A stretch of 64,000 nt of DNA from Anaerolineae bacterium (GTDB taxonomy: Bacteria > Chloroflexota > Anaerolineae > B4-G1 > SLSP01): NCBI GenBank assembly GCA_035420085.1, contig DAOLUH010000003.1, forward strand, positions 80,106 to 144,105, given 5' to 3'. The position numbers and the translations under genes are program-made. Numbering within the stretch: the stretch's first letter is position 1; the number at the start of each line of letters is the position of its first letter. This document shows positions 9,097-45,246 of this stretch, in pieces. The notes under the pieces are model-generated. The model worked only from the letters and a program-made list of their open reading frames with translations, was not told where the DNA came from and ran no database searches.

Positions 9097-9101
9097 CGTC
9101 C

Positions 9102-11239: not shown

Positions 11240-11271
11240 TGTTCCTCTCTCCTTGTTGTGGTAGTGTTGTT

Positions 11272-16065: not shown

Positions 16066-16668
16066 TTAGTCCTCCACGGTGAAAGCGTTGGATGTGATTG
16101 GTTGGGTGCCGGGTATCCGCGCGGTCAGGCGCAGGGGCGCGGCGTAGGCTGGGCTGACGTCGAAGACCAGGTAGCCTGTGGCTTGTGCGTTGGGCGGCAA
16201 GGTTTGATCTGAGAGCGGAGCGGTGTCCGTCAAAGCTGGCCCTTCGACTACGCTCAGGGCCGGCCCTTCGGCCACGCTGAGAGCGAGTTCTGCGGCTTGC
16301 GCGCGGGAGTAGCTGTGCCCGGCGCTGTCGGCCAGAGTGAACTCGGCCTGGGATAGATCAAGGCGCATACTGCCCGTGTTCTGCACCTCGGCCACGACGA
16401 CGATGAACACGCCGGCGGGCTGAGCAGACAGATTCAGGCCCAAGGGGTGCGTCAGGGTCACGGCGCTGCTTGCCGTGGGCGGTGCGACGTACGTGGCGGT
16501 GTACGCCCGCGTGACGCGCAGTTGCCCTGCCGAGGGTGTCGCCGTGGCAACCACCACCGGACGCACCGGCAGCGGCTCGATGGGTAACGGCAAGATCGAA
16601 AAGATGTTGCAGCCCAGGGGCAGCCCTAGCCCGACACTGATCCCTATGATTTTGACGATGTGATGCAT
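16066..16668 (-). CDS. lipoprotein with DUF4352-like Ig-fold domain; first gene of the Tad operon
   Basis: Track ORF 16066..16695. Likely start is ATG at 16668 (MHHIVKIIGISVGLGLPLGC, lipobox-like). 'VFIVVVAEVQNTGSMRLDLSQAEFTLADSAGHSY...ATGYLVFDV' fits the DUF4352 pattern. Confidence 0.5.
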   Translation of the reverse strand: MHHIVKIIGISVGLGLPLGCNIFSILPLPIEPLPVRPVVVATATPSAGQLRVTRAYTATYVAPPTASSAVTLTHPLGLNLSAQPAGVFIVVVAEVQNTGSMRLDLSQAEFTLADSAGHSYSRAQAAELALSVAEGPALSVVEGPALTDTAPLSDQTLPPNAQATGYLVFDVSPAYAAPLRLTARIPGTQPITSNAFTVED

Positions 16669-16691
16669 CTTCCTAACCCCTTTTGACGCAA

Positions 16692-16845
16692 ACAAAAAAG
16701 GGGAGGACCTGGAACCGAAGTTCCAAGTCCTCCCCTTTCATTTCCTGGCCAGGATACCTAGTCAGGACGCCGCAGGCTTGAAGGCTTCCTGCGGATCGGA
16801 GCGTTTAGCCCCAGACCTTTTCACGGTGGTTGAGCACCGTTATAT
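16692..16845 (-). ncRNA. candidate ~150-nt structured 5' leader or sRNA (copy 1), unknown class, ending in an intrinsic terminator ~25 nt before the Tad operon start codon
   Basis: Minus-strand RNA has three hairpins: ACGGTG-ctcaac-CACCGT, GGGGC-taaac-GCTCC and CCGCAGG-aagccttcaag-CCTGCGG. It ends in a terminator GGGGAGGACyTGGAAC-ttcg-GTTCCAGGTCCTCCCC followed by TTTTTT (plus-strand 16694-16735). Homologous to 31108-31265, with stems preserved and loops differing. Confidence 0.45.
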
Positions 16846-16877: not shown

Positions 16878-16954
16878 GGGGGGTAACGCGATGAATTTCC
16901 GAATTTCGCATATAAAACTTAGCAGCGCAGCAGAGGTGGGTAGCGAACGTTATT

Positions 16955-16982
16955 TTGACTGTCTGTGAAAGGTATCTATACT
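16955..16982 (+). promoter_or_regulatory. candidate promoter of the STAND/TPR operon
   Basis: TTGACT (16955-16960), 16-nt spacer, TATACT (16977-16982), about 70 nt upstream of the first TPR gene. Confidence 0.35.
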
Positions 16983-17050
16983 TGGGTCAGAGTAACAGCA
17001 AAGCATTGGCGAAACAGGTAGCGCGATAGAGGTCCGTTTCCCAAGTTTCG

Positions 17051-18319
17051 ATGTTGAGTCAGATGATGACACACAAAGCATCCCCAGCACCAGCCTATAC
17101 CCAACGCAGTTTGGAACTGCGCGCGGCGGAGTATTATGCCAGTATACGCAAGCCACAGAGCGACTGGAAGTCTATTGAAGACTTAACACCACAACTGGCG
17201 GAGTTTGAACATTTGACACATGCAAAAAAATACGATTCGGCAGCGAGAGTATTAAGGAAAATTGACTTCAACTATCTCGACCTATGGGGATACCATGCCT
17301 ATTTGGCTGCGATGCGAGAAAAATTACTAGGACATATAACAGACGTTGGCGCTCAGGCATACAATTTCGGTAGTCTGGGACGTATTTATCACATTTTGGG
17401 AGAGACCGGGCAAGCTATCGATCTTTATGAGCAAGCACTAACTATTGTTCGAAGGATGAATAATCGGCGTTGGGAAAGCGCCTGGTTAGGAAATTTGGGC
17501 CATGCAAGTTATGATTTGGGACGGATTCAATGGGCCCAGGATCAACTTACTCGGGCTGTAATTCTTGCTCAAGAGGCTAGAAACCACCAAGGTGAAGCCA
17601 CCTGGCTCAATTATCTGGCAAATGTTTACCGTGCTTTGGGAGAACTACGACAAGCTGTCGCGTATTATGAGCAGGCTTTGAATATTGTGGGTGAAATAAG
17701 TGACCGTCGTAGAGAATGTCTTATCTTCAGTGACTTAGCGCGAGCTTACTACAGTTTGGGACAGGCTGAACAGATTGTTTCTTGCTGTGAGAAAGGCTTG
17801 ATTATTGCCCGAGAAATTGGTTATCACTATGGAGAAAGCTGTTGCCTTGTTGGTCTAGCAAAAGGGTCCCTCTTGCTAGGTGACTTCTACAGAGTCCAGC
17901 AATGCTGTACTGAATCTCTGGTTTTGGGTTATCCAGAAAGTAATTATCAAGCAGCATTATTGTGGGGTATTGGTCTTCTGCATCAGCAAGATCTATGTGC
18001 TCGTAATGTCTTTGTTGATGCAATCACACATTGTTTGGTTGTTCTAGATAAAACAGAAGATATGTTTGAAGTTCGTTACCTTTTGGCACTAGCTCTTGTC
18101 GGTCAAGCCGTCTGCGCCCCTTACTGGCCTGATCTTAGCCAGCGTACTGTCCTTCTTGCTCCCGCGCTGACCGAATATCGCCACGCCCTTAACATCACCG
18201 CTGCTCCTGGTGTTGTCAGCAATGCGCTACGCGACCTGGAACTCATCCGCGCGGCGGGTATCGAGGGCCTGGAGCCAGTTTTTGACCTCCTGGAAGGAGC
18301 GTTGCATGAGCAGTTCTAA
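17051..18319 (+). CDS. TPR-repeat protein, paralog 1 of 5 (STAND sensor-like module without NTPase)
   Basis: 422 aa. N-module 'YTQRSLELRAAEYYASIRKPQSDWKSIEDLTPQLAEFEHL', then TPR units (YEQAL.I.R......E...LGNLG..Y..LG). C-module 'ITAAPGVVSNALRDLELIRAAGIEGLEPVFDLLEGAL'. Confidence 0.85.
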   Translation: MLSQMMTHKASPAPAYTQRSLELRAAEYYASIRKPQSDWKSIEDLTPQLAEFEHLTHAKKYDSAARVLRKIDFNYLDLWGYHAYLAAMREKLLGHITDVGAQAYNFGSLGRIYHILGETGQAIDLYEQALTIVRRMNNRRWESAWLGNLGHASYDLGRIQWAQDQLTRAVILAQEARNHQGEATWLNYLANVYRALGELRQAVAYYEQALNIVGEISDRRRECLIFSDLARAYYSLGQAEQIVSCCEKGLIIAREIGYHYGESCCLVGLAKGSLLLGDFYRVQQCCTESLVLGYPESNYQAALLWGIGLLHQQDLCARNVFVDAITHCLVVLDKTEDMFEVRYLLALALVGQAVCAPYWPDLSQRTVLLAPALTEYRHALNITAAPGVVSNALRDLELIRAAGIEGLEPVFDLLEGALHEQF

Positions 18320-19841
18320 TTCCTACACCTGGCGCTCCTTGGAACTACGTGCAGCGGAGTATTATGCCCATATCTGCAAACCGGAGAGCGAGTGGAAAAC
18401 GCTTGGGGATTTAGCGCCTCAATTGGTAGAATTTGAACATTTGGTGAAAGCCGGTGCCTATGATGCGGCGTGCCAAGTCCTGGACAGTATAGATACCACC
18501 CACTTGTTCATATGGGGATATTATGCACTGCTTGTAGGAATGCGAAAAGCCTTGGTAGGAGAGATTCAGTTGTTGGCTTTACAGCTCAATAACTTCGAAG
18601 GGATGGCCAATGCTTTAAGAGTATTGGGAGAGTTGCAATCGGCCATTGCCCACTATGAACAAGGATTAACTCTAGCGCGTCACATCAGGGATCGGTCAAG
18701 AGAGGGAAAATTGCAAGGAAACCTGGGAAGTGCATATTGGGCATTAGGACAATATGAAAAGGGTCTAGCTTCTTATGAAAGTGCTTTAGCGATAGCAAGT
18801 GAAACAGGGGATCGGTGGGAAGAGTGCAAACAACTTAGCCGTTTGGGACGCACCTCCTATCAATTAGGATATTTTGCACAAGCCGTCATGTATCATGAAA
18901 AAGCTCTCACGATTGCTCGTGAAATCAGGAATCGTCAATGGGAAGGGTACATTTCAGGAGCACTAGGCAATATCCGGCGTGCTTTAGGGCAATTCGAAGC
19001 AGCACGTACCCTCTATGAAACAGCTTTGGCAATTGCGTACAAGACGGGGGAGCGCCGTGAAGAAGGTGTGCGTCACTGGAGTTTAGGGCGTCTCTACCAT
19101 GATCTGGGGCATCCTGAAAAAGCGTTGACCTTTTATGAGATAGCACTTCGGTTCAGTCGTGATACAGCAGCTCGAGTGGAAGAACAGAAAGTTCTCGGAA
19201 GTATAGGCGACATCTATCTTGATCTTGAAGATTATACACAAGCTCTAGATTACTACCAAAAGGCCCTGACGATCAATCAGGAAATTGGTTATCGAAGAGG
19301 TCAAGGATATCGTCTGTTGGGGCTACTAAAGGCTAAACTGGCAATTGGAGATTTCGCAGAAGTCCAACATTTGGAATCAGTGGCTATGTCATTCAAGATT
19401 CTTGAAGTTGATTATCACATCCAATTAATTCTGGGAATTGCTTATCTGTATCAGAATACCATGAAAGCATCCGAGTATATCGCCGGTGCTGTCACACAGA
19501 GTCAGGGATTGTTAGCAAAGAGTCGAGGGTTGTATGCTCCTCAATATGCTCTGGGCACTGCTCTGGTTGGTCAAGCTGCGTGCGATCCTCGCTGGCCTGA
19601 CTCCAACCAACACACTGTCTTGCTTGCTTCCGCTTTGGCAGAATACCGTCGTGCTCTTGATATCACCTCGGCTCCCGGTGTTGTCCGCGATGCGCTTCAC
19701 GATCTGAAACTGATCCGTGCTGCCGGCATCGACGGCCTGGAACCGGCATTTGCCTTGTTAGAACAAGCCATAGCTGATTGGCAATCCTTACCGGGTGACG
19801 CTTTACCGTCGCCCACGAGCTTACAGGAGGATACCGTATGA
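18306..19841 (+). CDS. TPR-repeat protein, paralog 2 of 5
   Basis: Track ORF 18210..19841, trimmed to ATG at 18306 (MSSSNSYTWRSLELRAAEYYAH...); 14-nt overlap with paralog 1. C-module 'ITSAPGVVRDALHDLKLIRAAGIDGLEPAFALLEQAI'. Confidence 0.85.
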   Translation: MSSSNSYTWRSLELRAAEYYAHICKPESEWKTLGDLAPQLVEFEHLVKAGAYDAACQVLDSIDTTHLFIWGYYALLVGMRKALVGEIQLLALQLNNFEGMANALRVLGELQSAIAHYEQGLTLARHIRDRSREGKLQGNLGSAYWALGQYEKGLASYESALAIASETGDRWEECKQLSRLGRTSYQLGYFAQAVMYHEKALTIAREIRNRQWEGYISGALGNIRRALGQFEAARTLYETALAIAYKTGERREEGVRHWSLGRLYHDLGHPEKALTFYEIALRFSRDTAARVEEQKVLGSIGDIYLDLEDYTQALDYYQKALTINQEIGYRRGQGYRLLGLLKAKLAIGDFAEVQHLESVAMSFKILEVDYHIQLILGIAYLYQNTMKASEYIAGAVTQSQGLLAKSRGLYAPQYALGTALVGQAACDPRWPDSNQHTVLLASALAEYRRALDITSAPGVVRDALHDLKLIRAAGIDGLEPAFALLEQAIADWQSLPGDALPSPTSLQEDTV

Positions 19842-21637
19842 CCACACCAAGTTTGACCCAGCATCTCAGCCCGTTGCGCCAGGTACTGGCTGCGCAGTTG
19901 ACCGCCGATGACTTGAGCACACTCTGCTTTGACTTGGGCCTGGATTATGACGCACTACCGGCTCAAGAGCAAGGCCACAAGGCACGCGAGTTGCTCAAGC
20001 GCATAGTCCAAGACGATCGTGTCTATGAATTGGTGAGTGCTGGCAAGTCTATTCGCCCTGATGTGACCTGGGATGCAGCCATTGCCGCCTGGTCGCAGGC
20101 GCAGCTAGATGCGGATATGACCTGGTGGCGCGCCAAGCGTGACTGGGATGACGCCGACCGCCGCGAGCGGCGTGAACGGCAGCGCGTGGTCAATGTCCGC
20201 CCTCTGGACGTCACACACACCTTCAAGGATCGTGTGCGCGAGGCCCTGGCATTGCGTGAACACCTAACCGATGGCACAGTGCGTCTAGTTAGTGTGGTAG
20301 GGCGCGGAGGAATGGGAAAGACGGCATTGGTCAGCCACGTGCTGGCCGACCTGGAAGAGATGATTACGCCCGTTGCTGAAGCTGTGCCGGATAAACGACC
20401 GGCGGGAATTCCACCTGCGCTTTACAGTCGCCTGCGCGCGGCCTTGCAGACGTGCGGAGCGTTCGACAGTGACGCGGCCTTGCGTGCTATCTTTGTAGAT
20501 GCGCGACTGGCTCCCTGGCAGAGCCAAATCCCTGAAGCAGATAGCGTCTTTGCCCGTATTCAGCGGACAATTGCCTTCCTGTTTGCGCACACGGCTGATG
20601 CTTCTGGACATCCAGAAAATGCGCTGGCGTTGTTACTGCACGTTCTGAGCGAACAAACGGAAACCGGGGATGCCAATCAGCGTCGTTTACTAGAACTGGC
20701 GGAGGAACTTGTGGCATTGACCAAGACGCCGACCGAAACGCTATCTGGGGCACAGGACGGGACAGCCGCGCAACCGGTGGATGGGATACTCTACCTGAGT
20801 GCGCGTAGCACGGGACTGAGCCTGGAACGCATTTACACGGATGTGGGACGGATGTTGGGCGATCCCGTAGCAAGTCGCCTGGCAGCGCGGTGGGCTGACC
20901 GCGACACACCATTGGCCGCCAAGGTGGAGTACCTGCTGGAAACGTTGCAAGAAGGTGTATATGTCATCTTGCTCGATAACCTGGAAGATGTGTTGGGTGA
21001 CGATAATGCCATTCAGGAAGAAGGACTGCGGCTCTTCGTAGAACGCTGTATGCTACAACCGGGTGGGGCGCGGTTGATTACGACCTCGCGGGAGCAGGTC
21101 TCCGTGGCGCCGGCGGCGGTGCGGAGTGCGCGGCACATCCCCCTGCGAGAAGGGCTGCCGGAAGATGATGCTGTAGCCTTGCTGCGCGACTTCGACAGCG
21201 ACGGTCGCCTGGGATTGCGTGACGCACCGGAAGCCGATTTGCGCCGGGCAGTACAGCTTACGCAAGGCATCCCGCGCGCATTGGAGATCCTGGCCGGCAT
21301 CCTGGATCGGGATCCAACGCAGACGTTGAGCGAGTTATTGGCCGATGAAACTGTCTTTGGTGAACAAGTGATGGAGAGCTTGATTGCCGCCGGATACGAA
21401 CGTTTGGGTGAAGACGAACGGCGTGTGTTGGAAGCGTTGGCTGTTTTCAATCGACCTGTGGATGCTACCGCAATTGCGTTCCTGCTGCAACCCTGGTTCC
21501 CTGCATTGGATGTGCGCACCAGTCTGCGGCGGTTGGTCAACAGCTACTTCGTGACTTTTAACCGGGCGACGGGTGAGTACAGCTTGCATCCGATGGATCG
21601 CGAGTATATGTACCGGCGGATTCCAGAGGAAGCGTGA
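19838..21637 (+). CDS. NB-ARC-type STAND NTPase with a small N-terminal helical (EAD/death-like) domain and no repeat sensor
   Basis: 599 aa. N-terminus 'LRQVLAAQLTADDLSTLCFDLGLDYDALPAQEQGHKARELLKRIVQDDRVYELV'. Walker A 'VSVVGRGGMGKTALVSHVL'. Walker B 'VYVILLDNLEDV'. 'LITTSRE' and a winged-helix-like end '...YSLHPMDREYMYRRI'. About 150 aa are inserted between Walker A and Walker B. 4-nt overlaps with both neighbours. Confidence 0.85.
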   Translation: MTTPSLTQHLSPLRQVLAAQLTADDLSTLCFDLGLDYDALPAQEQGHKARELLKRIVQDDRVYELVSAGKSIRPDVTWDAAIAAWSQAQLDADMTWWRAKRDWDDADRRERRERQRVVNVRPLDVTHTFKDRVREALALREHLTDGTVRLVSVVGRGGMGKTALVSHVLADLEEMITPVAEAVPDKRPAGIPPALYSRLRAALQTCGAFDSDAALRAIFVDARLAPWQSQIPEADSVFARIQRTIAFLFAHTADASGHPENALALLLHVLSEQTETGDANQRRLLELAEELVALTKTPTETLSGAQDGTAAQPVDGILYLSARSTGLSLERIYTDVGRMLGDPVASRLAARWADRDTPLAAKVEYLLETLQEGVYVILLDNLEDVLGDDNAIQEEGLRLFVERCMLQPGGARLITTSREQVSVAPAAVRSARHIPLREGLPEDDAVALLRDFDSDGRLGLRDAPEADLRRAVQLTQGIPRALEILAGILDRDPTQTLSELLADETVFGEQVMESLIAAGYERLGEDERRVLEALAVFNRPVDATAIAFLLQPWFPALDVRTSLRRLVNSYFVTFNRATGEYSLHPMDREYMYRRIPEEA

Positions 21638-23130
21638 AAGATAAGCAGGCTTTCAACAGTGAGCCGATGTCGTACACACGCCAGGCTCTAGAATTGCGTG
21701 CGGCGGATTACTATGCCAGTATACGTAAGCCGGAGTATGAGTGGAAATCTATCGAGGATTTGATCCCGCAACTTACACAGTTCAGACATCAGGTGTGTGC
21801 GTTAGATTACGAAGGCGCTAGTCAAACTCTCCGGGCAATCGATTATGATTACCTCTACCTTTGGGGGTATTACGCACGACTGATCGACTTACACAGCCAA
21901 TTGTTGGGGAACCTGCAAACTCCTCGTCTGGTGATGGATAACCTCGTTGGTCTGGGACGTGTTTGTCGCGCTACCGGCAAATTTACTCAGGCAGTTACAT
22001 ACTACGAAAAGGCTTTGGATGTTGGCGGCACAATCGATGACTCATATAGAAAAAGTGTGCTGTTTGGCCACTTGGGTAGCGTGTATCGTGCTTTGGGCAA
22101 GATCAAACAGGCTATTGAGTTCTACGAGCAGGCTTTAACACTGGCCCTGGAGGTCGCGGATCGCCGTTTACAATGTGATCAACTTGGACACCTGGGGATG
22201 TGTTACCGAAGTCTCGGCGCAATGCACCAAGGTATCCAGTATCATCAGCAGGCTCTCGCCATTGCGCGGGAGATCGGCAATCGTGCTCTGGAAGGTGCCA
22301 ACCTGAGTAGCCTTGGCAGCGCTATGCGCGCGATCGGTAAAATCGAGGAATCTTTGATTTACTACCGACAGGCTCTAGATATTGCGCGACAAACCCGCGA
22401 CCGGCGTGTTGAGGGCTTTGCTTTATCCAGTATGGGCGGTGCGTATCGAGCCTTGGGCGACATCAACTATGCTATTGAATGTTACAGGCAGGCGCTTGAA
22501 ATAGCGCGTGAAACCGGTTATCGCCAAGGAGAGGCGATAGACCTGGGCGACATAGCCAGTGTTTACTACACGTTAGGCAAATATGACCAGGCGCTAGAGT
22601 TGTATGAGCAAGCTCTCAAGATCAGTAGTGAGATAGGGGACTCCCGGCAAGTTGGATATCATCTCGTTGGCCTTGGCAAAACCTGGTTGGCAATGGGACC
22701 CTATTCCAGAGCCATCGACTGTTTTAGGCAATCACTCGACGTGGGCTTACCGGATTCAGCTTACCGTGCGGCATTGGGATTGGCTGTGACCTATCTGACA
22801 CTTGGAAAACCTGAAGCTGCAGCCGCGTTTGGGGACGCGATAGTCCGTAGTAGAGTGCTATTGGATAAAACCCAGGATAATTACCGGGCGTTATATGCAC
22901 TTGCTACTGCCAAGGTAGGCGTTGCCATCTGCGACCCACTTTGGAACAATGTCCGTAGACGCGCCGATCTTCTAGCCCCTGCATTGGATAAGTATCGGCG
23001 GGCTTTGGAAATCACCGCTATGCCTGGTGTTGTACGGGATGCCTTGCGCGACCTCGAACTCATCCGCGCTGTTGGCGTTGAGGGCCTGGAACCAGTGTTT
23101 GCACTCCTGGAAGGGGGATTGAATGGATAG
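21634..23130 (+). CDS. TPR-repeat protein, paralog 3 of 5
   Basis: 498 aa. 'YTRQALELRAADYYASIRKPEYEWKSIEDLIPQLTQFRHQ' ... 'ITAMPGVVRDALRDLELIRAVGVEGLEPVFALLEGGL'. Start overlaps the NTPase stop. Confidence 0.85.
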   Translation: MKDKQAFNSEPMSYTRQALELRAADYYASIRKPEYEWKSIEDLIPQLTQFRHQVCALDYEGASQTLRAIDYDYLYLWGYYARLIDLHSQLLGNLQTPRLVMDNLVGLGRVCRATGKFTQAVTYYEKALDVGGTIDDSYRKSVLFGHLGSVYRALGKIKQAIEFYEQALTLALEVADRRLQCDQLGHLGMCYRSLGAMHQGIQYHQQALAIAREIGNRALEGANLSSLGSAMRAIGKIEESLIYYRQALDIARQTRDRRVEGFALSSMGGAYRALGDINYAIECYRQALEIARETGYRQGEAIDLGDIASVYYTLGKYDQALELYEQALKISSEIGDSRQVGYHLVGLGKTWLAMGPYSRAIDCFRQSLDVGLPDSAYRAALGLAVTYLTLGKPEAAAAFGDAIVRSRVLLDKTQDNYRALYALATAKVGVAICDPLWNNVRRRADLLAPALDKYRRALEITAMPGVVRDALRDLELIRAVGVEGLEPVFALLEGGLNG

Positions 23131-24844
23131 TCCCGATCCTTACAATCGCCGTAACCTGGAACTGCGAGTAGCGGAATACTACGCCAGTATTCGCAAGCCA
23201 GAGAGCGAGTGGAAGACGATTGAGGATTTGACCGCACTATTATCGGAAGTCGAACATCGTTTCTGTGGCGGTGACTGTGATGGCATGGCCAGGTTGCTGG
23301 ATTTGATTGATGTTGATTACTTATTCTTATGGGGATATCATCATCACTTGATTAGACTGCGCGAACAACTGATCAATTGTCACATCGAACCACGTTTGCA
23401 GGTTCAGAACTTAGGTCGATTGGGACGCATAGCGCACAGCATAGGGCGATTCAATCGAGCAATCGAATATCATCAACAGGCCTTGCGTATTATCGAGGAT
23501 GCCGGTTTGGATGACAATGTGGAAAAATGCAAACATCTGGGTTATCTCGGTACCAATTATCACTTCCAGGGCCAGGCTGGAAAAGCGATTGATTACTATC
23601 AGAGGGCGTTAGCCCTTGCCCGCAGTGTACACGACCGTGGCTTTGAAAGTATCTGGTTGGGCTATTTGGGATACGCTTATCGTATTATCGGAGAGTTGGA
23701 TCAGTCGGTCACTTGCTTGGAACGTGCCTTGCAGATCGCGCGGGTGATAGGTGACCGTCGGGAGGAGCAGCGTCATCTTGGCAACCTGGGTAGCACTTAC
23801 TATGATTTAGGAGAAACGGAAAAGGCCCTAACCTACTATCGTGACGCCGTTGCCATTGCACAAGAACTTGGCTATCGGCGGTATGTTGGAATCTGGCAAG
23901 GGGCTTTGGGTGAAGTGTATCGGGACCTGAGGTATTTAGATCAAGCGATTCGGGTGTGTCAAGAGTCTCTGGCTATAGCTCGAGAGGTTGATGACAGATG
24001 GAGTGAAACCCTCTGGTTACGATCATTAGGTAATGCTTACTATAATGTGGGGCAGTTCGAAGAAGCTATCCGTGTTGCCAACCAGGGGCTTGCGATCGCG
24101 CAGCAGATTGGCGATCGGGTATCAGAAGGCGGACATCTGGGTATCTTGTGCAGAACATATCTGTCGCTTGGATTCAATGATCAAGCATTTGAGTATGGTC
24201 AAAATGCGTTAACCGTGACTCGAAGCACGCATGAACCTCGGAATATGTGTGTTCGACTTTGCGATTTCGGGGCTGTCTGTTTCAGCCTTGAGCAACTCGA
24301 ACTTGCGCTTCAGCATTATACGCAAGCTTTAATCCTCGCCCGTGAGGGAGGTGAACCCTATAAGGTGAGTTATTGCTTGTTGGGAATGGCGAGAGTTTTG
24401 CTTGGTGAAGGGCGCTACAGCGAAGCCGAACCGTACAGTCGCGAAGCTTGCACATTGGATGTGCCAGCAACTAAACATCAAGCAGCTCTAGGTTTGGCCT
24501 TTTCACATCTCTATCAATGCAGTATATCGGCTGTGGAAAGTTTCACGGATGCAATTGCAGAATGTCAGACTATCCTGAATAAAACGCCAACGTTATATAA
24601 GACCCGTTACGTCTTGGCGACTGCGATGGTGGGGCAAGCCGTATGTCACTCAAGATGGGGAAATATTGGCGAAAAGAGAACGTTGTTGGTTCCCGCTCTC
24701 GTCGAATATCGCCGCGCGCTGGACATCACATCTGCCCCTGGCGTCGTGCGTGACGCCCTCCGCGACCTGGAACTCATACGTGCTGCCGGTGTCGAGGGTT
24801 TGGAGCCGGCATTTGAACTGCTGGAAGGTGCGTTGAATGAGTAG
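23123..24844 (+). CDS. TPR-repeat protein, paralog 4 of 5
   Basis: 573 aa. 'YNRRNLELRVAEYYASIRKPESEWKTIEDL' ... 'ITSAPGVVRDALRDLELIRAAGVEGLEPAFELLEGAL'. 8-nt overlap with paralog 3. Confidence 0.85.
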   Translation: MDSPDPYNRRNLELRVAEYYASIRKPESEWKTIEDLTALLSEVEHRFCGGDCDGMARLLDLIDVDYLFLWGYHHHLIRLREQLINCHIEPRLQVQNLGRLGRIAHSIGRFNRAIEYHQQALRIIEDAGLDDNVEKCKHLGYLGTNYHFQGQAGKAIDYYQRALALARSVHDRGFESIWLGYLGYAYRIIGELDQSVTCLERALQIARVIGDRREEQRHLGNLGSTYYDLGETEKALTYYRDAVAIAQELGYRRYVGIWQGALGEVYRDLRYLDQAIRVCQESLAIAREVDDRWSETLWLRSLGNAYYNVGQFEEAIRVANQGLAIAQQIGDRVSEGGHLGILCRTYLSLGFNDQAFEYGQNALTVTRSTHEPRNMCVRLCDFGAVCFSLEQLELALQHYTQALILAREGGEPYKVSYCLLGMARVLLGEGRYSEAEPYSREACTLDVPATKHQAALGLAFSHLYQCSISAVESFTDAIAECQTILNKTPTLYKTRYVLATAMVGQAVCHSRWGNIGEKRTLLVPALVEYRRALDITSAPGVVRDALRDLELIRAAGVEGLEPAFELLEGALNE

Positions 24845-26468
24845 CACTTATCCCTACACTCGCCGCGCTATGGAGTTACGAGCAGCGGAATACTATGCCA
24901 GCATCCGCAAACCGGAACAAGAATGGCGATCTATTGAAGATTTGACTCCCCAATTGACAGAGTTTGAGCATCGCGTTCAGGGTGGAGACCATGACGCCGC
25001 GTGTATACTTCTCAATTGGATTGACTATGAGTATCTGTTTCGCTGGGGAAATTACAACTGGCTGCTGCAATTGCGGAAGCAGTTGAATGGTCGCTTACAC
25101 GATGTACTTCTTCAGGCGATGAATCAGGATGGATTAGGTTTCGTGCTCCTGGCACTGGGGCAAATCCGGGAAGCCATTGCGTTGCACGAGGACAGCTTGG
25201 CCCTTGCCGAACAAATAGGGGATCCGCAATTGGTCTGCCAGGTCTTGAATCATTTAGGAACTGCCTATCGCGATCTGGGGGAAGCAACCAGGGCGATTCG
25301 ATTGTATGAGGAAGCACTAAAGATAGCGCAAGACCTGTACTTTCGAGATCGTGAAGGGACGATTCTTGGAAACTTGGGGAACGCTTATCACAACTTGGGG
25401 GATTTTGAGCAGGCAATTGGGTTCTATGGGCAAAGTCTGTCCATTTACCGTGAGTTAGGTAATCGCCGCAGGGAAGGGGCAGAATTAAGTAACTTGGCCA
25501 ATACATACCGGGCAATGAAACAGTGTCATACAGCTTTGCGACATTACGAAACAGCGTTGGCTATCGCTCAGGAGATCAATGACGCGCTGTCTGAAAGCGA
25601 AACGTTAGGGGGCTTGGGCGTCGTATACCGTGAGTTAGGACAGTTTGAGTCGGCGCGCGATCTCTCTGAAAAGGCCCTGGCGATTGCCCGAGCTATCTCG
25701 GCTCGACGTTACGAAGGATTGAACCTGGGCCGCTTGGGTATCATCAATCAGTGCCTTGGGCAATATGCAACAGCACAAGCATACTATGCACAGGCACATT
25801 CCATCGCGTCGGAGATCGAGGATGTGCGCTATGTACGTGCTTGGTCGCATTATCTGGGAACTCTGTACCGTGCCTTGGGAGATTTTGACAAAGCAGTTGT
25901 CCATCACCGGCAAGCATTACCTGAAGGATACGAGGGTGAAGACAGGTCAGGGAAGGGTATCCATCTGCTGGGTCTAGGCAAAGCTCTGCTTGCACAGGGC
26001 CAGTTCGCGGAAGCCCGGTTGTGCTTTGAAGAAGCTTACACGCACAACACAGCCATCCGACATCAGGTACGGTTGATGCAAGGTGTGACTTGTCTGCATA
26101 TTCGGCATACGGCGTGCGCTGAATATTTTCGCACCGCTGTTGACCACTGTCGCGAAATGCTGCAAGCGGGGGACCTATATGAGACTCACTATACCCTGGC
26201 CATTTCTCTGGTTGGTCAGGCTGTCTGTGATCCACATTGGGATGACGCCACTCAACGCGCTGATCTCCTTGCCCTTGCGTTGACCGAGTATCGGCGCGCC
26301 TTGGGAATCACTGCTGCCCCTGGCGTTGTACGCGATGCTTTGCGCGACCTTGAACTCATCCGTGCTGCCGGCGTTGAGGGTGTGGAACCGGCGTTCGCGT
26401 TGTTGGAGCAGGCGCTCAAACGTGACACGCCTGCTACCAAGGGTGGTTCTGATCTCAGCACAGTGTAA
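24837..26468 (+). CDS. TPR-repeat protein, paralog 5 of 5
   Basis: 543 aa. 'YTRRAMELRAAEYYASIRKPEQEWRSIEDL' ... 'ITAAPGVVRDALRDLELIRAAGVEGVEPAFALLEQAL'. 8-nt overlap with paralog 4. Confidence 0.85.
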   Translation: MSSTYPYTRRAMELRAAEYYASIRKPEQEWRSIEDLTPQLTEFEHRVQGGDHDAACILLNWIDYEYLFRWGNYNWLLQLRKQLNGRLHDVLLQAMNQDGLGFVLLALGQIREAIALHEDSLALAEQIGDPQLVCQVLNHLGTAYRDLGEATRAIRLYEEALKIAQDLYFRDREGTILGNLGNAYHNLGDFEQAIGFYGQSLSIYRELGNRRREGAELSNLANTYRAMKQCHTALRHYETALAIAQEINDALSESETLGGLGVVYRELGQFESARDLSEKALAIARAISARRYEGLNLGRLGIINQCLGQYATAQAYYAQAHSIASEIEDVRYVRAWSHYLGTLYRALGDFDKAVVHHRQALPEGYEGEDRSGKGIHLLGLGKALLAQGQFAEARLCFEEAYTHNTAIRHQVRLMQGVTCLHIRHTACAEYFRTAVDHCREMLQAGDLYETHYTLAISLVGQAVCDPHWDDATQRADLLALALTEYRRALGITAAPGVVRDALRDLELIRAAGVEGVEPAFALLEQALKRDTPATKGGSDLSTV

Positions 26469-26473
26469 TTGTC

Positions 26474-26514
26474 GTCGCCAGTGTTGCTGACTGATGAACA
26501 GCAACACTGGCGAC
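26474..26514. terminator. perfect 16-bp inverted repeat between convergent genes (possible bidirectional terminator; no T-tract)
   Basis: GTCGCCAGTGTTGCTG (26474-26489), 9-nt loop, CAGCAACACTGGCGAC (26499-26514). Confidence 0.35.
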
Positions 26515-26522
26515 AACTCTGC

Positions 26523-29500
26523 TTATCCACCCCCCACAATCATCTCCAACTCCGTATCCGCCGGCGGCACAATCCCTGAAATGTCCACGAACTGTACCGG
26601 GAAGATTTCCATTTCACTTTCCTGGCTCAACGTCTTGCGCGTGCGGCGCACATAGCCCACCCCCGTAGGCATATTGAGCACGCTCAGCGTCCACTTGGAA
26701 TAGTCGTCGAGGCTTGTCTTTCCCGGCAAGCGCCCGGCCTTCGACACCGCGATTTCAGCATCTTTCACCGTACTCACCTTCTGGATAATCGCAATACTAC
26801 TGGAAGTCACCACGCCGGATGGCAACGGCTCCCAATGCTGCGCCGACGTCCACAGGTACAGGCCCAGCTTGCGTCCCCGGTCGGTGATGTTGTTCCACAG
26901 GCCCGCATCCTCGCCAATGGCCTGGGCGATCTCCGTTTGGGACGAGGCATCCGAGCGCATCACCACGTGGGCTTCTTCGACGAAAAGCAAGTGCTGCGGA
27001 ATGGGCCGGCCTTGACGTAAGTAATGCTCATAGCGTTCGTCCGCGTGCTGGTAGATGCCGGACACCATCAAGCCAATGATAAACTGCTTCAACGGCCCGT
27101 CATCGCCGAACTTCCCCGTAATCACCGTCGCTTTGTCCGGGGCCGTCCACTCGGTGACCGTCGTGCCGCCTGGCTGCCCGAAGGCGCGCCAGTACACCCC
27201 CTTCGGCAAGAACTCTTCCAGCTTGTCGATGATGCGCTTGACCACGCCGGCGGTGATTGTGTCGCTGCGGTCGGCGCTGAGTGCGGCGAAGCGGGAAACC
27301 AGGGCCTTGTGCAAGTCCTCCATACACAGATTCGCCGAACGGTCCAGGTACACCCTGCCGTCCTCCTCGATGACGCCCGCCGCGCGGTAAGCGTCCAGCA
27401 CTGCGCCCTTGAGCTGGTGGAAGCCGGTTGCCCCGGCGGGGTACGCCAGCAGCCAATGTTTGGCGAACGCCGCCGCCCACTTCGCCGGGTGCAAGTACGG
27501 GCTAGGGATGCGCAAGGGGTTGAATTGCAGAAGGGGCAAGGCAATGCCCGTAGCACCCGTTGGACTGTCAAAGGTCTCGACAGCACTGCCTTGCCCGTAC
27601 AGGGAATAATATTGGAGGTCCTTTGATGGAATCAGCAAGCCCAACTTACGCCATTCCCCCGTGGGATCGAAGACCGTCACCCCGATGCGCGGCGTTCCAC
27701 CTGCCGCGCCGGTCCGCACCGGCCCGGTGATGGGGGCAGAGATCGGGATGCCGTGCTCATCTTGCCGCAATGTGTTGACCACCTGCGAGACAAACCACAG
27801 CGCGGAGTTGGACTTGCCGGAGCCGGAATCCCCGACGATGACGGCGTGCATCAGTTCGTCGGCGCGGAAGCGATGGACGTTGTTGGGATCAGGCTGCAAG
27901 TTGACGTCCAACACCGTGCCCAACGCGATTTCCCCTTGGGTGCGGCGATGCGACAGGTCTTCCGGCCAGGCGTCCAGCGAGGCCGAAATCGTGCCGTCCG
28001 AGATGCGAATCGGGTGGACGAGCGCCGATAACTCGTTGGCCGTCAGGGTTTGCGCGTGGCGCAGCGTGTCGAACGGCCCGGCGTCTTCCGCACGCTCGTC
28101 GAAGTCCAGGGTAATGGCCCGTTGCCACAAGGTCTCGTCCCCCGCGCGCGCCGCGACAGGCACGACGACGTTCTCCTCGCGCATCGCCGCAATGGACGCC
28201 GCAGCCAACCGTTCCAGCCGAGATTCGTCAGGAGCCAGCAGCGTCACCTGCGTCAGGAACAGCCCAGTATCCAGCCCTGCGCTCAAGCGGCGTACCTGCT
28301 GGTCAAGCAACTGCGCCACCAGGTCACGCTGTGTGTCCACGATCTGCCGCCCGAAGGCCAGGCCCGCCACCAGCGAACCGCCGGATGGCCCCATCACGCC
28401 GCGTGTCGTCACCTGGGTACGGCCCGCGTTGGCGACCGTTGCCCCGACCTGTTCGGCGGCCTGGGCTTGCACATACTCGCGCCCTTCGCCGATCATCGCC
28501 TCTTGCCGCGCTTCGGCCCCGTCGATCTGCTCTTGTGAGTCACGGTAACCATCAAAGGTCTCGCTGCGGAAGCCGTTGACCACGCGGTTGGTCTCGCGTT
28601 GCAGCGCGCGGTCGGCGACGATCACATCTTGCTGCGAGAGATGCCCGCTACGCTGCCCGGTCTCGGCATAGCTGCCGCTAAAGGTACGGGCGAAGTGCTC
28701 GACGCCTTGATAGCCATCGCGGGTGGCCTGCTGCCAGGCAGTGTCTTGATCCACGGCACTCTCCCAGGCGCGCTGCGCTTCGCGGTCGGTGTGACTGGCA
28801 TCCTGGTAGGCTTCGCTGTAGCCATAAGCCACTTGACTGCTTCGTACCCCGCCCCCACTGCGCCATTCCGCCGTCTGCACCGTCTCATTGCCCTGCCAGG
28901 TCTGACCCAGCGCCTCCTGCTGGTTGCCGCTGCGTTCGTAGGCATTGTCCGACTGCTCGAAGCCTGCTGTGACCGTGCTTTGCTGCGTGTCGCGGGTGGT
29001 GTCCAGGTTACCCTCAGCCTGCGCGATTTCGTGGTCGCGGGATTCGTACATATTGCCACGCTCTCCGGCCTCCATTGTTTCACCCCCGCCGATGCCGAAG
29101 ATGCGCGGGGCCAGGTTGCCTTCCACGCCTTGATCAGCGTAGGTCTGCATCTGCGCTCCGTCACCCTGCACGTTACTTTCGGTGCTGCGGTCGAAGCCCT
29201 CGCTGCTGTACACGCTGCTGGCTCCGGTTTCGGACTGCTGGTAGCCGCCCTCGCTGTGTTCGTTGCCCGCCCCGCTGAACGACCGCTCGGTCTGTTCGTT
29301 GTAGCCGCCTTCCCAGGCACGGCTGCTGCCCCCGCTGTAGCGTTCCCCGACGCTGAAGTTTTCCACGGATGAACGGCTACCTGCCCCGGAGCGCACGCCG
29401 GAAACCCGCTCATTGATGCTCTCGGCGCTGTGCAGATTGCCGGTCTCATCGGTGTGCTGCTGGCGGTTGCCCTGCTGCGTGGCATCGCGCGCACCCTGGG

Positions 29501-30539
29501 TTTGCACCACACCGGCTTCGCTGCCGCTATACGAGCGGGACAAGGAATAACGGTCGGCATAGTCGCGTTCCAGGCTGACCTGCGCTTCTTCGTGCTCGTT
29601 CACCTGTTCACTCACGTGCTGCTTCTCGTAGTAGCCGGTGTTCTCCTGGCCTTGATGCGCCTCGTGGCTCGCGGTCTCACGGCGGTAGGCGCTGACGCTG
29701 TCGGACTGCCCGGCGGCCAGGCGATGGGCGTTCTGCTCGGTGCGCAAGCTTTGGTCGGCCCGCGTCACCTGGGTGGCACGATGGGTCTGTTCGCTGAACA
29801 CCGCCACCGGATTGAGGAACAGGGGCAGCACCGCACTCACATTGGCCGACTCGCTCTGCTTGACCTTGGAGGCGAAGTAGCTCAGGGCTTGGGCAGTGTC
29901 GGTCAGCATCCGCCGGATGTCCAGCGCGTGCAAGGGGTGTGCCAGGGTCAGGACGGCGAACGGCTCCCCGGCCAGCGCGGCGGCGATGACCTCGAGCTGC
30001 TCTTGCGCATCGGTGGTCACCAGTTGGTTGATGCCGTGCCCTGACCCCATCCCGGGTGCAAGGCGCGGCACCATCTGGCCGATGAGGGACGCGGTGTAGT
30101 GACAATCCCACAGATGCCGGTACAGCGCCGCGGCTTCGTCGCCGGATAGCAGCGTAAAGCGCGACTGCCGGAAGCGCCCTTGCAACGCCGCGACCAGACG
30201 TGCCGAGTTGAGCGCAGCCGCTTGCACGGCCTTTTCCTGAGTCTCTGCCGTTGCCAGCCCGCCGTAGACCTGAACGAGGCCCAATTCGGGCACATTGGCC
30301 AGGCCAAAGGCGGCGGCGGTGTTGCGCGCACCTTGTGGATCGTACAGGCTGCTCACCACGTCGTCGGTGAGTTCCAGGTGCGTCCGCGCGTGGCGATAGG
30401 GCTTGCGCAGGATGCGCAGCGCGTGCGGCGACCACGCCCGCCAGCCGTCGGGCAAGGCCCAGGCATAGGCGTGCAAGGATGCGCCGTCGGGGGTCAGGGT
30501 CATTGAGAAAGTGTTGGTGTTGGTGTTTGTGTTGTTCAT
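26523..30539 (-). CDS. 1338-aa HerA/FtsK-superfamily (DUF87-like) P-loop ATPase with a unique N-domain and a ~440-aa low-complexity disordered linker
   Basis: AAGGAGA RBS before ATG at 30539. C-terminal half: 'GEIALGTVLDVNL...ELMHAVIVGDSGSGKSNSALWF' (HAS-barrel-like segment + Walker A) and 'QHLLFVEEAHVVM' (HerA-type Walker B hhhhEEAH). Residues ~260-700 are a Q/S/E/G/Y/R-rich region with no recognisable fold. Confidence 0.7.
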   Translation of the reverse strand: MNNTNTNTNTFSMTLTPDGASLHAYAWALPDGWRAWSPHALRILRKPYRHARTHLELTDDVVSSLYDPQGARNTAAAFGLANVPELGLVQVYGGLATAETQEKAVQAAALNSARLVAALQGRFRQSRFTLLSGDEAAALYRHLWDCHYTASLIGQMVPRLAPGMGSGHGINQLVTTDAQEQLEVIAAALAGEPFAVLTLAHPLHALDIRRMLTDTAQALSYFASKVKQSESANVSAVLPLFLNPVAVFSEQTHRATQVTRADQSLRTEQNAHRLAAGQSDSVSAYRRETASHEAHQGQENTGYYEKQHVSEQVNEHEEAQVSLERDYADRYSLSRSYSGSEAGVVQTQGARDATQQGNRQQHTDETGNLHSAESINERVSGVRSGAGSRSSVENFSVGERYSGGSSRAWEGGYNEQTERSFSGAGNEHSEGGYQQSETGASSVYSSEGFDRSTESNVQGDGAQMQTYADQGVEGNLAPRIFGIGGGETMEAGERGNMYESRDHEIAQAEGNLDTTRDTQQSTVTAGFEQSDNAYERSGNQQEALGQTWQGNETVQTAEWRSGGGVRSSQVAYGYSEAYQDASHTDREAQRAWESAVDQDTAWQQATRDGYQGVEHFARTFSGSYAETGQRSGHLSQQDVIVADRALQRETNRVVNGFRSETFDGYRDSQEQIDGAEARQEAMIGEGREYVQAQAAEQVGATVANAGRTQVTTRGVMGPSGGSLVAGLAFGRQIVDTQRDLVAQLLDQQVRRLSAGLDTGLFLTQVTLLAPDESRLERLAAASIAAMREENVVVPVAARAGDETLWQRAITLDFDERAEDAGPFDTLRHAQTLTANELSALVHPIRISDGTISASLDAWPEDLSHRRTQGEIALGTVLDVNLQPDPNNVHRFRADELMHAVIVGDSGSGKSNSALWFVSQVVNTLRQDEHGIPISAPITGPVRTGAAGGTPRIGVTVFDPTGEWRKLGLLIPSKDLQYYSLYGQGSAVETFDSPTGATGIALPLLQFNPLRIPSPYLHPAKWAAAFAKHWLLAYPAGATGFHQLKGAVLDAYRAAGVIEEDGRVYLDRSANLCMEDLHKALVSRFAALSADRSDTITAGVVKRIIDKLEEFLPKGVYWRAFGQPGGTTVTEWTAPDKATVITGKFGDDGPLKQFIIGLMVSGIYQHADERYEHYLRQGRPIPQHLLFVEEAHVVMRSDASSQTEIAQAIGEDAGLWNNITDRGRKLGLYLWTSAQHWEPLPSGVVTSSSIAIIQKVSTVKDAEIAVSKAGRLPGKTSLDDYSKWTLSVLNMPTGVGYVRRTRKTLSQESEMEIFPVQFVDISGIVPPADTELEMIVGGG

Positions 30540-30556
30540 AGGGTCTCCTTTGATTT

Positions 30557-30614
30557 GGTAGACGGTAGACAGTAGACGGGTTTTCTTTCCCTGTCTACCG
30601 TATTCCGTCTACTG
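30557..30614. repeat. GTAGACNG word hairpin between the 4-TM gene and the HerA-like gene
   Basis: GGTAGACGGTAGACAGTAGACGGG ... CCCTGTCTACCGTATTCCGTCTACTG. A related GTAGATGGTAGACGGCAGACAGTAGAC lies at 34544-34570, upstream of the kinase gene. Confidence 0.6.
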
Positions 30615-31007
30615 ACGCTTAATCTGTTGAATAACATCCCGGCTTGCCATCCGCCCACCGAAGAACGGCGTACTGCGGTCCCAGAACAGGAAGCGCAAGA
30701 TGTAGGCATAGAAGCCGATGGCCGACATCACGGCGAAGCCCAGCAGCCACACTGAAATGCCGTAGAGCGTCGTCGCGCCTGGCTCCGGCGTGCCGCTGAC
30801 CAGCAATGCAGCGATGCGGTAGGCAAAGAGCAAGCCGGCGTTGCCCGCGAGGAAGAAGTAGATGTAGTTCGTGGTCGCCGCGCGGTCATCGGGCTTGAAG
30901 TAGGCCAGCGCCAGCGCCGCGCCCCACATTGGGGCCAAGACCCAGCGCAGTGCGCCAGGGGCCAGGACGAGGGCCAGGGTGTGTAAGGCCAAGATCAAAT
31001 ATGGCAT
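30609..31007 (-). CDS. small 4-TM membrane protein
   Basis: Track ORF 30609..31160, trimmed to ATG at 31007 (AGGAGG RBS): MPYLILALHTLALVLAPGALRWVLAPMWGAALALAYF... Four hydrophobic helices. No homology recognised. Confidence 0.55.
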   Translation of the reverse strand: MPYLILALHTLALVLAPGALRWVLAPMWGAALALAYFKPDDRAATTNYIYFFLAGNAGLLFAYRIAALLVSGTPEPGATTLYGISVWLLGFAVMSAIGFYAYILRFLFWDRSTPFFGGRMASRDVIQQIKRQ

Positions 31008-31107
31008 TGTGTGTTTCCTCCTATCTATAAATATGTACGTTTCGACAGAGTTTTCAGGATAGTGCATCTTTTCAACCTGTTCAACCTGTCGATCCTGTCC
31101 AAGAAAA

Positions 31108-31265
31108 CGAAAAAGGGGAGGACGCGGGATTGATCCCGTGTCCTCCCCTTTTATTCTCATCTCGGTGTTACGCGGTCAGAGCGCCGCAGGCTTGGAGGTT
31201 CCTGCGGTTTGGAGCCGAAGCCCCGGACTTTTGCGCCTGGAGGGTGATGCTGTATCCAGGTTTAT
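31108..31265 (-). ncRNA. candidate ~155-nt structured 5' leader or sRNA (copy 2), homologous to 16692-16845
   Basis: Minus-strand RNA hairpins: CCTGGA-tacagcatcaccc-TCCAGG, GGGGC-ttcg-GCTCC and CCGCAGG-aacctccaag-CCTGCGG, then CGCTCTGAC. Terminator GGGGAGGACrCGGGAT-caa-TCCCGCGTCCTCCCC followed by TTTTT (plus 31109-31148). Lies ~100 nt upstream of the 4-TM gene. Confidence 0.45.
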
Positions 31266-31269
31266 ATCT

Positions 31270-31299
31270 ATTATACCATATTCATACCTTGAATTTCAA
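31270..31299 (-). promoter_or_regulatory. sigma70-type promoter of leader copy 2
   Basis: Minus strand reads CCCCCCTTGAAA (-35, plus coordinates 31294-31299), an 18-nt spacer, then TGgTATAAT (extended -10; TATAAT = 31270-31275). Confidence 0.45.
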
Positions 31300-31372
31300 G
31301 GGGGGAATGGCTCAATTGCTCAATGTCTGATAATATACAGACTCTTGTGAGATACTCGTAGCTATTTACCCT

Positions 31373-45230: not shown

Positions 45231-45246
45231 TTGAGCCAACAAAGGA

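Follow-up and report, generated by a model that had tools for sequence, protein, structure and literature searches.

A STAND NTPase gene flanked by separate, strain-variable TPR sensor genes in Anaerolineae: a possible receptor divided between polypeptides

Receptors of the STAND (signal transduction ATPases with numerous domains) and NLR (nucleotide-binding leucine-rich repeat) classes are generally treated as single-chain machines, in which sensor, switch and often effector are covalently linked. To our knowledge, many-to-one wiring is known only between complete NLRs of plants and animals. Can a switch be separated from its sensor, and can several sensors serve one switch? This question is raised by a block of six genes (positions 17051-26468, + strand) in a 64,000-nt stretch of DNA from an Anaerolineae bacterium (contig DAOLUH010000003.1, assembly GCA_035420085.1; the whole stretch is referred to as the window). 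The block contains one gene for an NB-ARC-type STAND NTPase without repeats, N, and five genes, T1 to T5, for stand-alone tetratricopeptide repeat (TPR) sensor proteins. A first-pass annotation, made from the sequence letters, had read it as a STAND protein split at the NTPase/sensor junction, with the sensor half amplified. The results below support that split and reveal two adaptor domains in N which the annotation had not seen, and which probably turn its two-part picture into a three-part system. Our best explanation, to which we assign a probability of approximately 0.6, is an NLR/Apaf-1-like conflict module (immunity or programmed death) in which the three STAND jobs are performed by separate polypeptides.

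The NTPase, its TPR neighbours and the break between them

All six + strand open reading frames (ORFs) were found as annotated, in the order T1 (17051-18319, 422 aa), T2 (18306-19841, 511 aa), N (19838-21637, 599 aa), T3 (21634-23130, 498 aa), T4 (23123-24844, 573 aa) and T5 (24837-26468, 543 aa); T4 is the longest TPR copy, and T1 the shortest, with the fewest 40-residue TPR units. Successive genes overlap by 14, 4, 4, 8 and 8 nt, the stop of T2 overlapping the start of N by 4 nt and the GTG start of T3 overlapping the TGA stop of N. For T2 the mechanical ORF begins at GTG 18210, and the 511-aa product is counted from ATG 18306, which agrees with the conserved N-terminus and with the Shine-Dalgarno-like site GGAAGGAG. 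A purine-rich site of this kind (GGAAGG/GGAGG type) precedes every start and lies within the last codons of the upstream gene; in the TPR genes it is formed by the codons of the upstream gene's conserved C-terminal 'LLEGAL' peptide. The sole promoter-like + strand consensus match in the intergenic region before the array, TTGACT-16-TATACT (16955-16982), is located about 70 nt 5' of T1, and the region around it (16895-17213) is 78% conserved in a related locus, L042. No convincing + strand terminator was found within the block, and a perfect 16-bp inverted repeat with a 9-nt loop and no T-run (26474-26514), a candidate operon terminator, starts 6 nt past the T5 stop, directly before a convergent gene. 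The overlaps, the embedded ribosome-binding signals, the single upstream promoter-like site and the end hairpin support an operon-like organisation.

N is a STAND NTPase of the NB-ARC/AP-ATPase clade with an intact nucleotide switch. It is composed, in order, of an EAD7 (effector-associated domain 7) adaptor, a long helix, a nucleotide-binding domain (NBD) into which a bDLD1 domain is inserted, a helical domain and a winged helix. Motif matches comprise Walker A GRGGMGKT (aa 155-162, 20300-20323), Walker B ILLDNLED (aa 377-384, 20966-20989), TTSR (21077-21094), the GxP motif GIPRAL (aa 477-482, 21266-21283) and the MHD-like motif LHPMD at the end of the winged helix (aa 583-587, 21584-21598), all on the + strand. 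Across homologues these motifs (LHP in the case of the last) are invariant or nearly so, and residues G155, R156, G158, G160, K161, T162 and D380 do not vary in 50 homologues. The NB-ARC profile PF00931 scored 32.0 bits (cutoff 23.5) over aa 139-175 only, because the bDLD1 insertion interrupts the domain. N had no match in NCBIfam and no sequence match in the PDB.

The two adaptor domains score well above their Pfam cutoffs. EAD7 (PF19960, 47.4 bits, cutoff 32) occupies aa 13-74 (19874-20059, +), and bDLD1 (bacterial death-like domain 1, also known as EAD3; PF20689, 49.8 bits, cutoff 25) occupies aa 190-290 (20405-20707, +), between the Walker A helix and the next beta-strand of the NBD. In the AlphaFold2 (AF2) model of N (mean pLDDT 79.8), EAD7 forms four helices and is joined by a 35-residue helix to an NBD with a six-helix bundle as insert; the beta-alpha NBD is succeeded by the helical domain and by a two-stranded winged helix at residues 572-593. 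The top Foldseek matches of the model were Apaf-1 (1z6t), the NB-ARC domain of NRC1 (8bv0), NRC2 and CED-4 (probability 1.0, TM 0.3-0.43), and further structural matches in the PDB included Sr35 and RPP1.

What N lacks is a sensor. The protein ends ...GEYSLHPMDREYMYRRIPEEA, 12 residues past LHPMD, and Pfam finds NB-ARC and AAA_16 matches and not a single repeat, in accordance with the annotation's statement that the only NTPase stops after the winged helix. A repeat sensor in the same polypeptide, which is typical of STAND proteins though not strictly defining, is thus absent from N. Pfam detects no enzymatic effector domain in N either, and nothing else enzymatic in the operon.

The TPR proteins, in turn, match only TPR families in Pfam. 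All five carry the N-terminal motif quoted in the first-pass annotation; they are 44-46% identical to T1 and 42-47% identical among themselves, with conservation concentrated in the first ~90 and last ~110 residues, while the middle consists of 40-residue TPR units in variable copy number. The same pattern was obtained for 22 sensors from seven loci, in which column conservation is 0.75-0.86 at the ends and 0.4-0.5 in the middle, and repeat number differs.

The origin of these two kinds of protein becomes apparent from the fused relatives. Outside its own clade, the nearest relatives of N are mostly 850-1050 aa long and combine NB-ARC and TPR with a fused EAD7, DUF4062 or trypsin domain; they occur in Anaerolineae and other Chloroflexota and are direct homologues, with the same linker position, the same EAD7 and the same 40-residue TPR units. 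Their NTPase core is approximately 70% identical to N, and they hold just ~10-15 residues where N carries bDLD1 (alignment consensus). In alignments to 92 fused homologues, the initial 100 residues of each T protein fall on residues ~540-640, directly past the winged helix, with 55-65% identity, and its final 130 residues fall on the extreme C-termini with the same degree of identity. Across the junction the fused relatives read ...GEYSLHPLDREYAYRQLPDDEEPEAYNRRNLELRAADFYASIRKPESEWK..., and the T proteins open with M(5-15 residues)Y.RR.LELRAAEYYASIRKPE.EWK, so that the break in the window falls within a short acidic linker of the PDDEEPEA type. Since the end of N, the starts of the T proteins and their C-terminal modules all align to the fused homologues, the split is a fission in the acidic linker and each T protein corresponds to a complete sensor arm. 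These alignments bear out the annotation's view of a STAND protein divided at the NTPase/sensor junction and amplified in its sensor half. The difference from the fused relatives is therefore twofold: they have one sensor per NTPase in the same polypeptide, whereas here separate genes encode one to at least six sensors per locus, and a bDLD1 domain has been inserted into the P-loop domain of the NTPase. When N and T3 were re-fused in silico, AF2 returned a chain with pLDDT 82.4, pTM 0.64 and a low-confidence junction; its best Foldseek match was the solved archaeal STAND-TPR protein 6mfv, followed by TPRs of the peptide-binding LGN/Pins type.

Broken genes of the fused type do exist and look different. 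In three loci, L043 (2150-5342), L044 (3802-6689) and L008 (10001-13889), the reading frame of the NTPase is kept through LELRAADFYASIRKPESEWK and lost afterwards, the following ORF beginning mid-module. In L008 the TPR part terminates in an ADP-ribosylglycohydrolase domain. A genuine 1:1 split at the linker was seen in a DUF4062-type relative, L007, whose sensor has a different C-module, and gene fission at this position must therefore have happened more than once. Among the loci examined, the one-to-many array was found only with bDLD1-type NTPases.

Recurrence and sensor exchange at one chromosomal site

Related loci were drawn from a representative genome set and from metagenome contigs. 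EAD7-bDLD1 NTPases (599-609 aa, 73-95% identical to N) form 14 clusters at 90% identity, and those with a name are all labelled Anaerolineae, a class in which filamentous growth is common; the label of every close homologue is Anaerolineae or Chloroflexota. In the 89-residue segment that contains EAD7, 14 homologues are 65-95% identical to N. Stand-alone sensors adjoin the NTPase in every locus examined that has an EAD7-bDLD1 NTPase, a layout found in at least ten assemblies or loci. Rather than the single fused genes which the annotation had named as evidence against its proposal, at least ten loci keep a 599-604-aa NTPase with stand-alone sensors. The recurrence of the architecture in independent assemblies removes chance as an explanation.

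The number of sensors ranges from one to at least six per locus, and from four to six at the shared site described below, some of the counts per locus being lower bounds. Two sensors upstream and three downstream of the NTPase are found in the window and in L039-L042 (where one of the three is disrupted), against one and three in L002, at least two and four in L005, at least one and two in L001 and in L036-L038, at least two and two in L004 together with L045, at least one and three in L035, and at least one on either side in L006. The long ORF of L006, considered as a new N-terminal effector fusion, was rejected since it spans a scaffold gap (a run of X) between the upstream sensor and the NTPase. 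L003 has no upstream and one downstream sensor; its NTPase is the most divergent of the bDLD1 type (73% identical to N) and is paired 1:1 with this sensor. A NERD-domain gene (L003 8144-9346) is located 650 nt upstream of that NTPase.

The window's array is followed by a convergent gene for a 1338-aa protein (26523-30539, - strand), and an orthologue of this gene follows every locus except L003, the L006 contig ending before that position. L002 also keeps the window's upstream genes. As the same gene flanks them, all loci but L003 can be assigned to one chromosomal site. The flanking gene has core composition (GC3, the G+C content of third codon positions, 0.80) and is 87-100% identical at the amino acid level in related loci; gene calling divides it into two in L036-L038 (988 + 341 aa). 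Its product is serine/glutamine-rich (NF033849 match, below cutoff) and has a C-terminal P-loop, GDSGSGKS. The possibility that it is a linked effector was discarded: it contains neither EAD7 nor bDLD1, and as a gene of core composition it merely flanks the site.

Three versions of the site, with different sensor sets and with NTPases 84-89% identical to N, were binned in one metagenome-assembled genome (MAG), H66_674 (contigs DAOUAQ010000154/256/264, that is L001, L002 and L005). We initially regarded them as three paralogous loci; this was revised, as all three contigs share the flanking gene. For the same reason they are most likely co-binned haplotypes of one site in a strain-mixed bin, coexisting in one community, and a segmental triplication is the less likely alternative.

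The sensor complement of this site is highly variable. At 55% identity, 17 types can be distinguished among the 22 complete sensors of seven loci, and no two sensors of the same locus are more than 47% identical. Some types are common to several loci in a mosaic pattern: T3 has orthologues in L002, L006, L035 and L036 (76-99%), T4 was seen elsewhere only in L035 (100%), and the L005 orthologue of T5 (L005_d4) is 92% identical, with a dS of 0.215 compared to 0.936 for the adjacent NTPases. A similar discrepancy was obtained for the sensors L001_d1 and L004_d1, with a dS of 0.277 compared to 0.661 for their NTPases. Conversely, one and the same NTPase protein (P0001) is accompanied by T3/T4/T5-type sensors in L035, and by a T3-type sensor and one unrelated type in three other assemblies.

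The boundaries of the exchanged segments were visible in DNA comparisons. Over 10 kb (~21700-31637), identity between the window and L035 is 100%; it is 88-92% in the T2 C-terminal module and all of N, and only ~60% in the variable region of T2, which places the breakpoints at the N/T3 junction and within the T2 C-module. In the comparison with L036, the similarity breaks off within the T3 C-module/T4 N-module and returns within the T5 C-module. Within a locus, the conserved sensor ends are just 60-78% identical in DNA, and recent gene conversion among the ends of paralogues is consequently not supported; this argues for exchange between alleles or strains rather than ongoing conversion inside the locus. 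The comparisons support a sensor set that turns over by recombination at module boundaries, with strains differing in the sensors they carry.

Selection on the individual genes was estimated from dN/dS, which is 0.07-0.11 for N and 0.12-0.19 for orthologous sensor pairs (four sensor types, including the T3 and T5 of the window), indicating that all of these are functional genes. A point-mutational arms race in the sensors was considered and is not supported, as dN/dS in the variable middle of orthologous pairs is as low as 0.08-0.14. Sensor diversity would seem to stem instead from many old types and from their exchange. In a profile search with T1-T5, which yielded 463 relatives at E ≤ 1e-20, the best 120 contained at least 44 distinct stand-alone sensor clusters (N-module from residue 6-32), compared to the 14 clusters of split NTPases. 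One MAG contig, L047, has two tandem sensors (3236-12164 with the genes that follow) and then genes for an HNH protein, a 1756-aa DEAD/MZB helicase and an SNF2 protein.

These observations also bear on the composition of the block. Its G+C content is 46-59%, compared to ~63% in the flanks; GC3 is 0.41-0.52 in the TPR genes (0.41 in T1), 0.62 in N and 0.77-0.86 in flanking core genes. The low G+C reported by the first-pass annotation, which had taken it to suggest horizontal acquisition, was thus confirmed. The locus, however, occupies a conserved site with the same flanking genes in related genomes, and recombinational exchange of cassettes within the lineage fits better than the one-off acquisition of the whole block. 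As to a dedicated diversification mechanism, no near-identical repeat pair was found in 16.5-27 kb (direct repeats are mostly 60-80% identical, with a maximum of 87% over 23 nt) and no reverse transcriptase among the scanned large ORFs of the window (a scan that did not exhaustively cover ORFs under 200 aa); neither the template/variable repeat pair nor the nearby reverse transcriptase that mark a diversity-generating retroelement was thus detected. No Rfam family and no tRNA were detected in the 64-kb window.

A proposed constant hub with separate sensors, and other readings

How might such a set of proteins operate? In the proposed module the hub would be the one constant NB-ARC NTPase with its two homotypic adaptor domains, EAD7 and the inserted bDLD1, and the sensors would be the stand-alone TPR proteins, each matching a fused relative's entire C-terminal arm. 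The ends of the TPR proteins, strongly conserved over the first ~40 and the last ~50 residues, may dock on the winged-helix/NBD surface of the hub and keep it off, and a foreign protein or peptide may be bound by the variable stack, which comprises five to nine 40-residue TPR units. Ligand on any one sensor would then free the hub for nucleotide exchange and oligomerisation, and the clustered EAD7 and bDLD1 would recruit an effector encoded elsewhere with the same adaptor, for which the caspase, CHAT, TIR, SIR2 or kinase types are candidates. In populations, the sensors that accompany the hub would be reshuffled through recombination at the conserved boundaries of the modules. The docking, autoinhibition, ligands, oligomerisation and effector in this scheme are taken by analogy from fused STANDs; in Avs7, the distal TPR-sensor lobe contacts the NTPase and causes autoinhibition, which is relieved by ligand binding (PMC13581612). 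In its fullest form, that of one Apaf-1-like NTPase with strain-specific stand-alone TPR receptors docking in trans and death-fold/EAD adaptors leading to a separate executioner, we hold the scheme to be tentative, its chances somewhat short of even. The combinatorial ligand recognition suggested by the annotation may follow from it.

The adaptors point outside the operon. EADs have been proposed to couple NTPase cores to effectors with the same domain, often encoded elsewhere in the genome (PMC7159879, PMC8195603), and in N both EAD7 and bDLD1 are fused to the core NTPase. As N has no effector domain of its own, the effector is probably encoded separately. The bDLD1 of N has 1088 representative relatives, and among 80 of the best matches it is fused to caspase, CHAT, kinase, TIR, SIR2, NACHT/nSTAND, Roc-COR and EAD7 domains. 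EAD7 was found in other genomes, mostly of Chloroflexota, fused to FGE-sulfatase, NB-ARC and a ~260-aa domain, and in a Verrucomicrobiae MAG to TIR. In L007, directly upstream of the DUF4062-NB-ARC gene and its single TPR gene, a 795-aa protein (7557-9944) carries EAD7 between kinase-domain matches and may be regarded as a candidate EAD7-tagged effector beside a 1:1 split relative.

Several observations weigh against a conflict module of this kind. Hidden Markov models of EAD7 and bDLD1, run on six-frame ORFs of the window and of L001-L006, match only the NTPases, and so does a pattern scan for EAD7 in the same MAGs (which are incomplete, the pattern detecting close relatives only). A comparison with known defence models, suggested by the first-pass annotation, was carried out with PADLOC, which has no model for the system; it gave a marginal PD-Lambda-4_A match to N (E = 0.0057) and generic TPR models for T1-T5. 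A part in phage defence is putative, and so is the binding of T proteins to N, the structure models being AF2 predictions of single chains. The orthologous sensors show no signal of positive selection (dN/dS). Promoter and terminator are known as consensus matches only. Finally, the P0003 haplotype (L039-L042) has a broken first downstream sensor (e.g. L039 3397-4887, with ORFs of 254, 58 and 214 aa), of the L001_d1 type (78-80% identity). The same breaks occur in four independent assemblies, so this pseudogenised sensor is real, and since one haplotype carries it, not every sensor copy is always needed.

That broken sensor agrees with a different scenario, in which only one sensor (e.g. the coupled T3) works with the NTPase at a time and the others are spares for recombinational replacement, in the manner of the orphan modules for toxin and immunity that lie downstream of rhs or cdiA genes. 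The coincidence of the recombination breakpoints with the conserved N- and C-modules, and the swapping of whole sensors between haplotypes, would be expected of such a reservoir. Loci of this kind, including type I restriction-modification loci with multiple or shufflable hsdS genes, resemble ours in having a constant core and interchangeable modules that recombine at conserved boundaries. The hsdS and rhs/cdiA proteins are, however, unrelated to those described here, and no invertase or recombinase was found in our locus. Orphan rhs/cdi cassettes lack a translation start of their own, whereas every sensor here is a complete translatable gene with its start codon, Shine-Dalgarno-like site, complete N-module and overlap with its neighbour. 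Sensors are moreover found on both sides of N, all orthologous pairs tested are under purifying selection, and ends that are only 60-78% identical in DNA make a poor substrate for frequent recombination inside the locus. We therefore consider a reservoir of spares unlikely.

Another possible explanation is that the TPR proteins are trans-acting inhibitors or chaperones, comparable to antitoxin-like guards, and that the hub itself does the sensing (e.g. via EAD7 or bDLD1) and fires upon degradation or titration of the TPR proteins. The repeat arm of fused STANDs does autoinhibit the NBD (PMC13581612), and the conserved ends of the TPR proteins would be equally suited to inhibition. A simple inhibitor, however, needs neither at least 17 divergent types nor variable repeat number nor strain-specific repertoires, and the homologous arms of the fused relatives occupy the canonical sensor position. 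This explanation appears quite improbable.

Even less weight is given to a non-immune role, as a MalT/AfsR-like or developmental STAND whose TPR paralogues would act as scaffolds for a filamentous bacterium's own partner proteins. Such regulators are known among STAND-TPR proteins, any link to phage is putative, and the locus sits at a fixed chromosomal site. But N has no DNA-binding or other output domain; outputs of the EAD7 and bDLD1 kind typify conflict systems in which the partners are caspase, TIR and SIR2 (PMC8195603); and the locus is hypervariable and mosaic between near-identical strains, with an atypical GC3 like that of the neighbouring defence-like islands.

Least tenable of all is that fused genes were broken by assembly frameshift or by pseudogenisation, which truly happened in L043, L044 and L008 but can be given almost no credence here, where a clean break in the linker comes with properly overlapping stops and starts and with Shine-Dalgarno-like sites, recurs in at least ten assemblies from different samples, and is accompanied by purifying selection on all genes.

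Genomic setting, comparison with known systems and significance

The window is a high-G+C Anaerolineae chromosome segment with three low-G+C islands, the six-gene operon among them. The second (31373-41142, - strand) encodes a 1050-aa protein with Pkinase and TPR domains (31373-34525), a 1402-aa protein with weak nSTAND_NTPase5/nSTAND3 matches (34893-39101) and two RlaP (PF10127) nucleotidyltransferases (39117-41142), and looks like another STAND-type conflict locus. The third (48559-52353, - strand), with a McrB-like EVE+AAA_5 gene, an overlapping 413-aa ORF without Pfam match and McrC, is a type IV restriction system with an EVE reader domain. It is adjoined by AddA/AddB-like genes (41853-48550) and, right past it, by an error-prone polymerase cassette of an ImuB-like (IMS) gene followed by a DnaE2-like Pol III alpha gene (52752-57262, + strand). 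The low-G+C islands are consistent with a neighbourhood of the defence type. Upstream of the array, a 20-bp G+C-rich hairpin with a - strand T-run (16696-16739) directly precedes the start of a DUF4352 gene (16066-16695, - strand); this hairpin, a possible terminator or attenuator, lies in the divergent intergenic region that also contains the promoter-like site of the operon. A 1466-aa ORF (1032-5432, - strand) has no Pfam match, and its weak N-terminal match to the Bdellovibrio 'mosaic adhesive trimer' fibre family NF053851 (E = 5e-7) is below cutoff.

The closest structural counterparts of N, Apaf-1/CED-4 and plant NB-ARC NLRs (the NRC helpers, Sr35, RPP1), share only 10-19% sequence identity with it. 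Like Apaf-1, which combines CARD with NB-ARC, N pairs a death-fold-type adaptor with an NB-ARC switch, its oligomerisation and adaptor function being putative; those proteins, however, carry WD40 or LRR sensors in cis, and N does not. Many diversified sensors feed one conserved hub in the mammalian NAIP-NLRC4 system and in the NRC network of Solanaceae by the same logic, but those sensors are complete NLRs with their own NTPase, whereas the sensors described here have none and share one operon with the hub, so that the likeness is one of analogy and not of homology. Among bacterial systems, Avs1-21 and bNACHT offer a mechanistic template, since they too are STAND NTPases with a TPR-like sensor that binds a phage protein and thereby relieves autoinhibition (PMC13581612). 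Avs proteins are single polypeptides with a fused effector; in N the effector is not fused, and PADLOC has no model that covers the system.

The individual parts are known: the NB-ARC STAND NTPase, the TPR sensor, EAD7 and bDLD1, with AP-ATPase-clade STANDs of 'multicellular' bacteria having been described by Kaur et al. in 2020 and 2021 (PMC7159879, PMC8195603). As a fused ancestor and 1:1 splits exist, the layout is not categorically new. The arrangement itself was not found described in the searchable open literature, including the two Aravind-group surveys, the papers on bacterial NLR/BASS and bNACHT systems and a 2026 Avs survey, in keeping with the first-pass annotation, which knew of no such STAND or Avs layout. 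Its new features, in this sense, are the sensor arm split off at the linker, the one to at least six sensors flanking one hub, the death-like insert in the P-loop domain and the sensor sets reshuffled between strains.

If the proposed wiring is true, an NB-ARC switch can be autoinhibited and activated in trans, and the conserved N- and C-modules would provide an experimental handle on the sensor-arm surfaces that control the switch. A hub that accepts plug-in TPR sensors would also have engineering appeal. For the organism, adding or swapping a 1.5-kb sensor gene, as compared to duplicating a whole receptor, would be a cheap route to broad recognition. The pathway would be a modular, apoptosome-like one of receptor, switch, adaptor and effector, with its receptors re-dealt between strains by recombination at module boundaries, and would constitute a prokaryotic counterpart of sensor/helper NLR networks, reached via gene fission instead of duplication of whole NLRs. 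With an identical hub accompanied by different sensor sets, this uncultured filamentous lineage provides a clear example of a polymorphic locus of the immune type.

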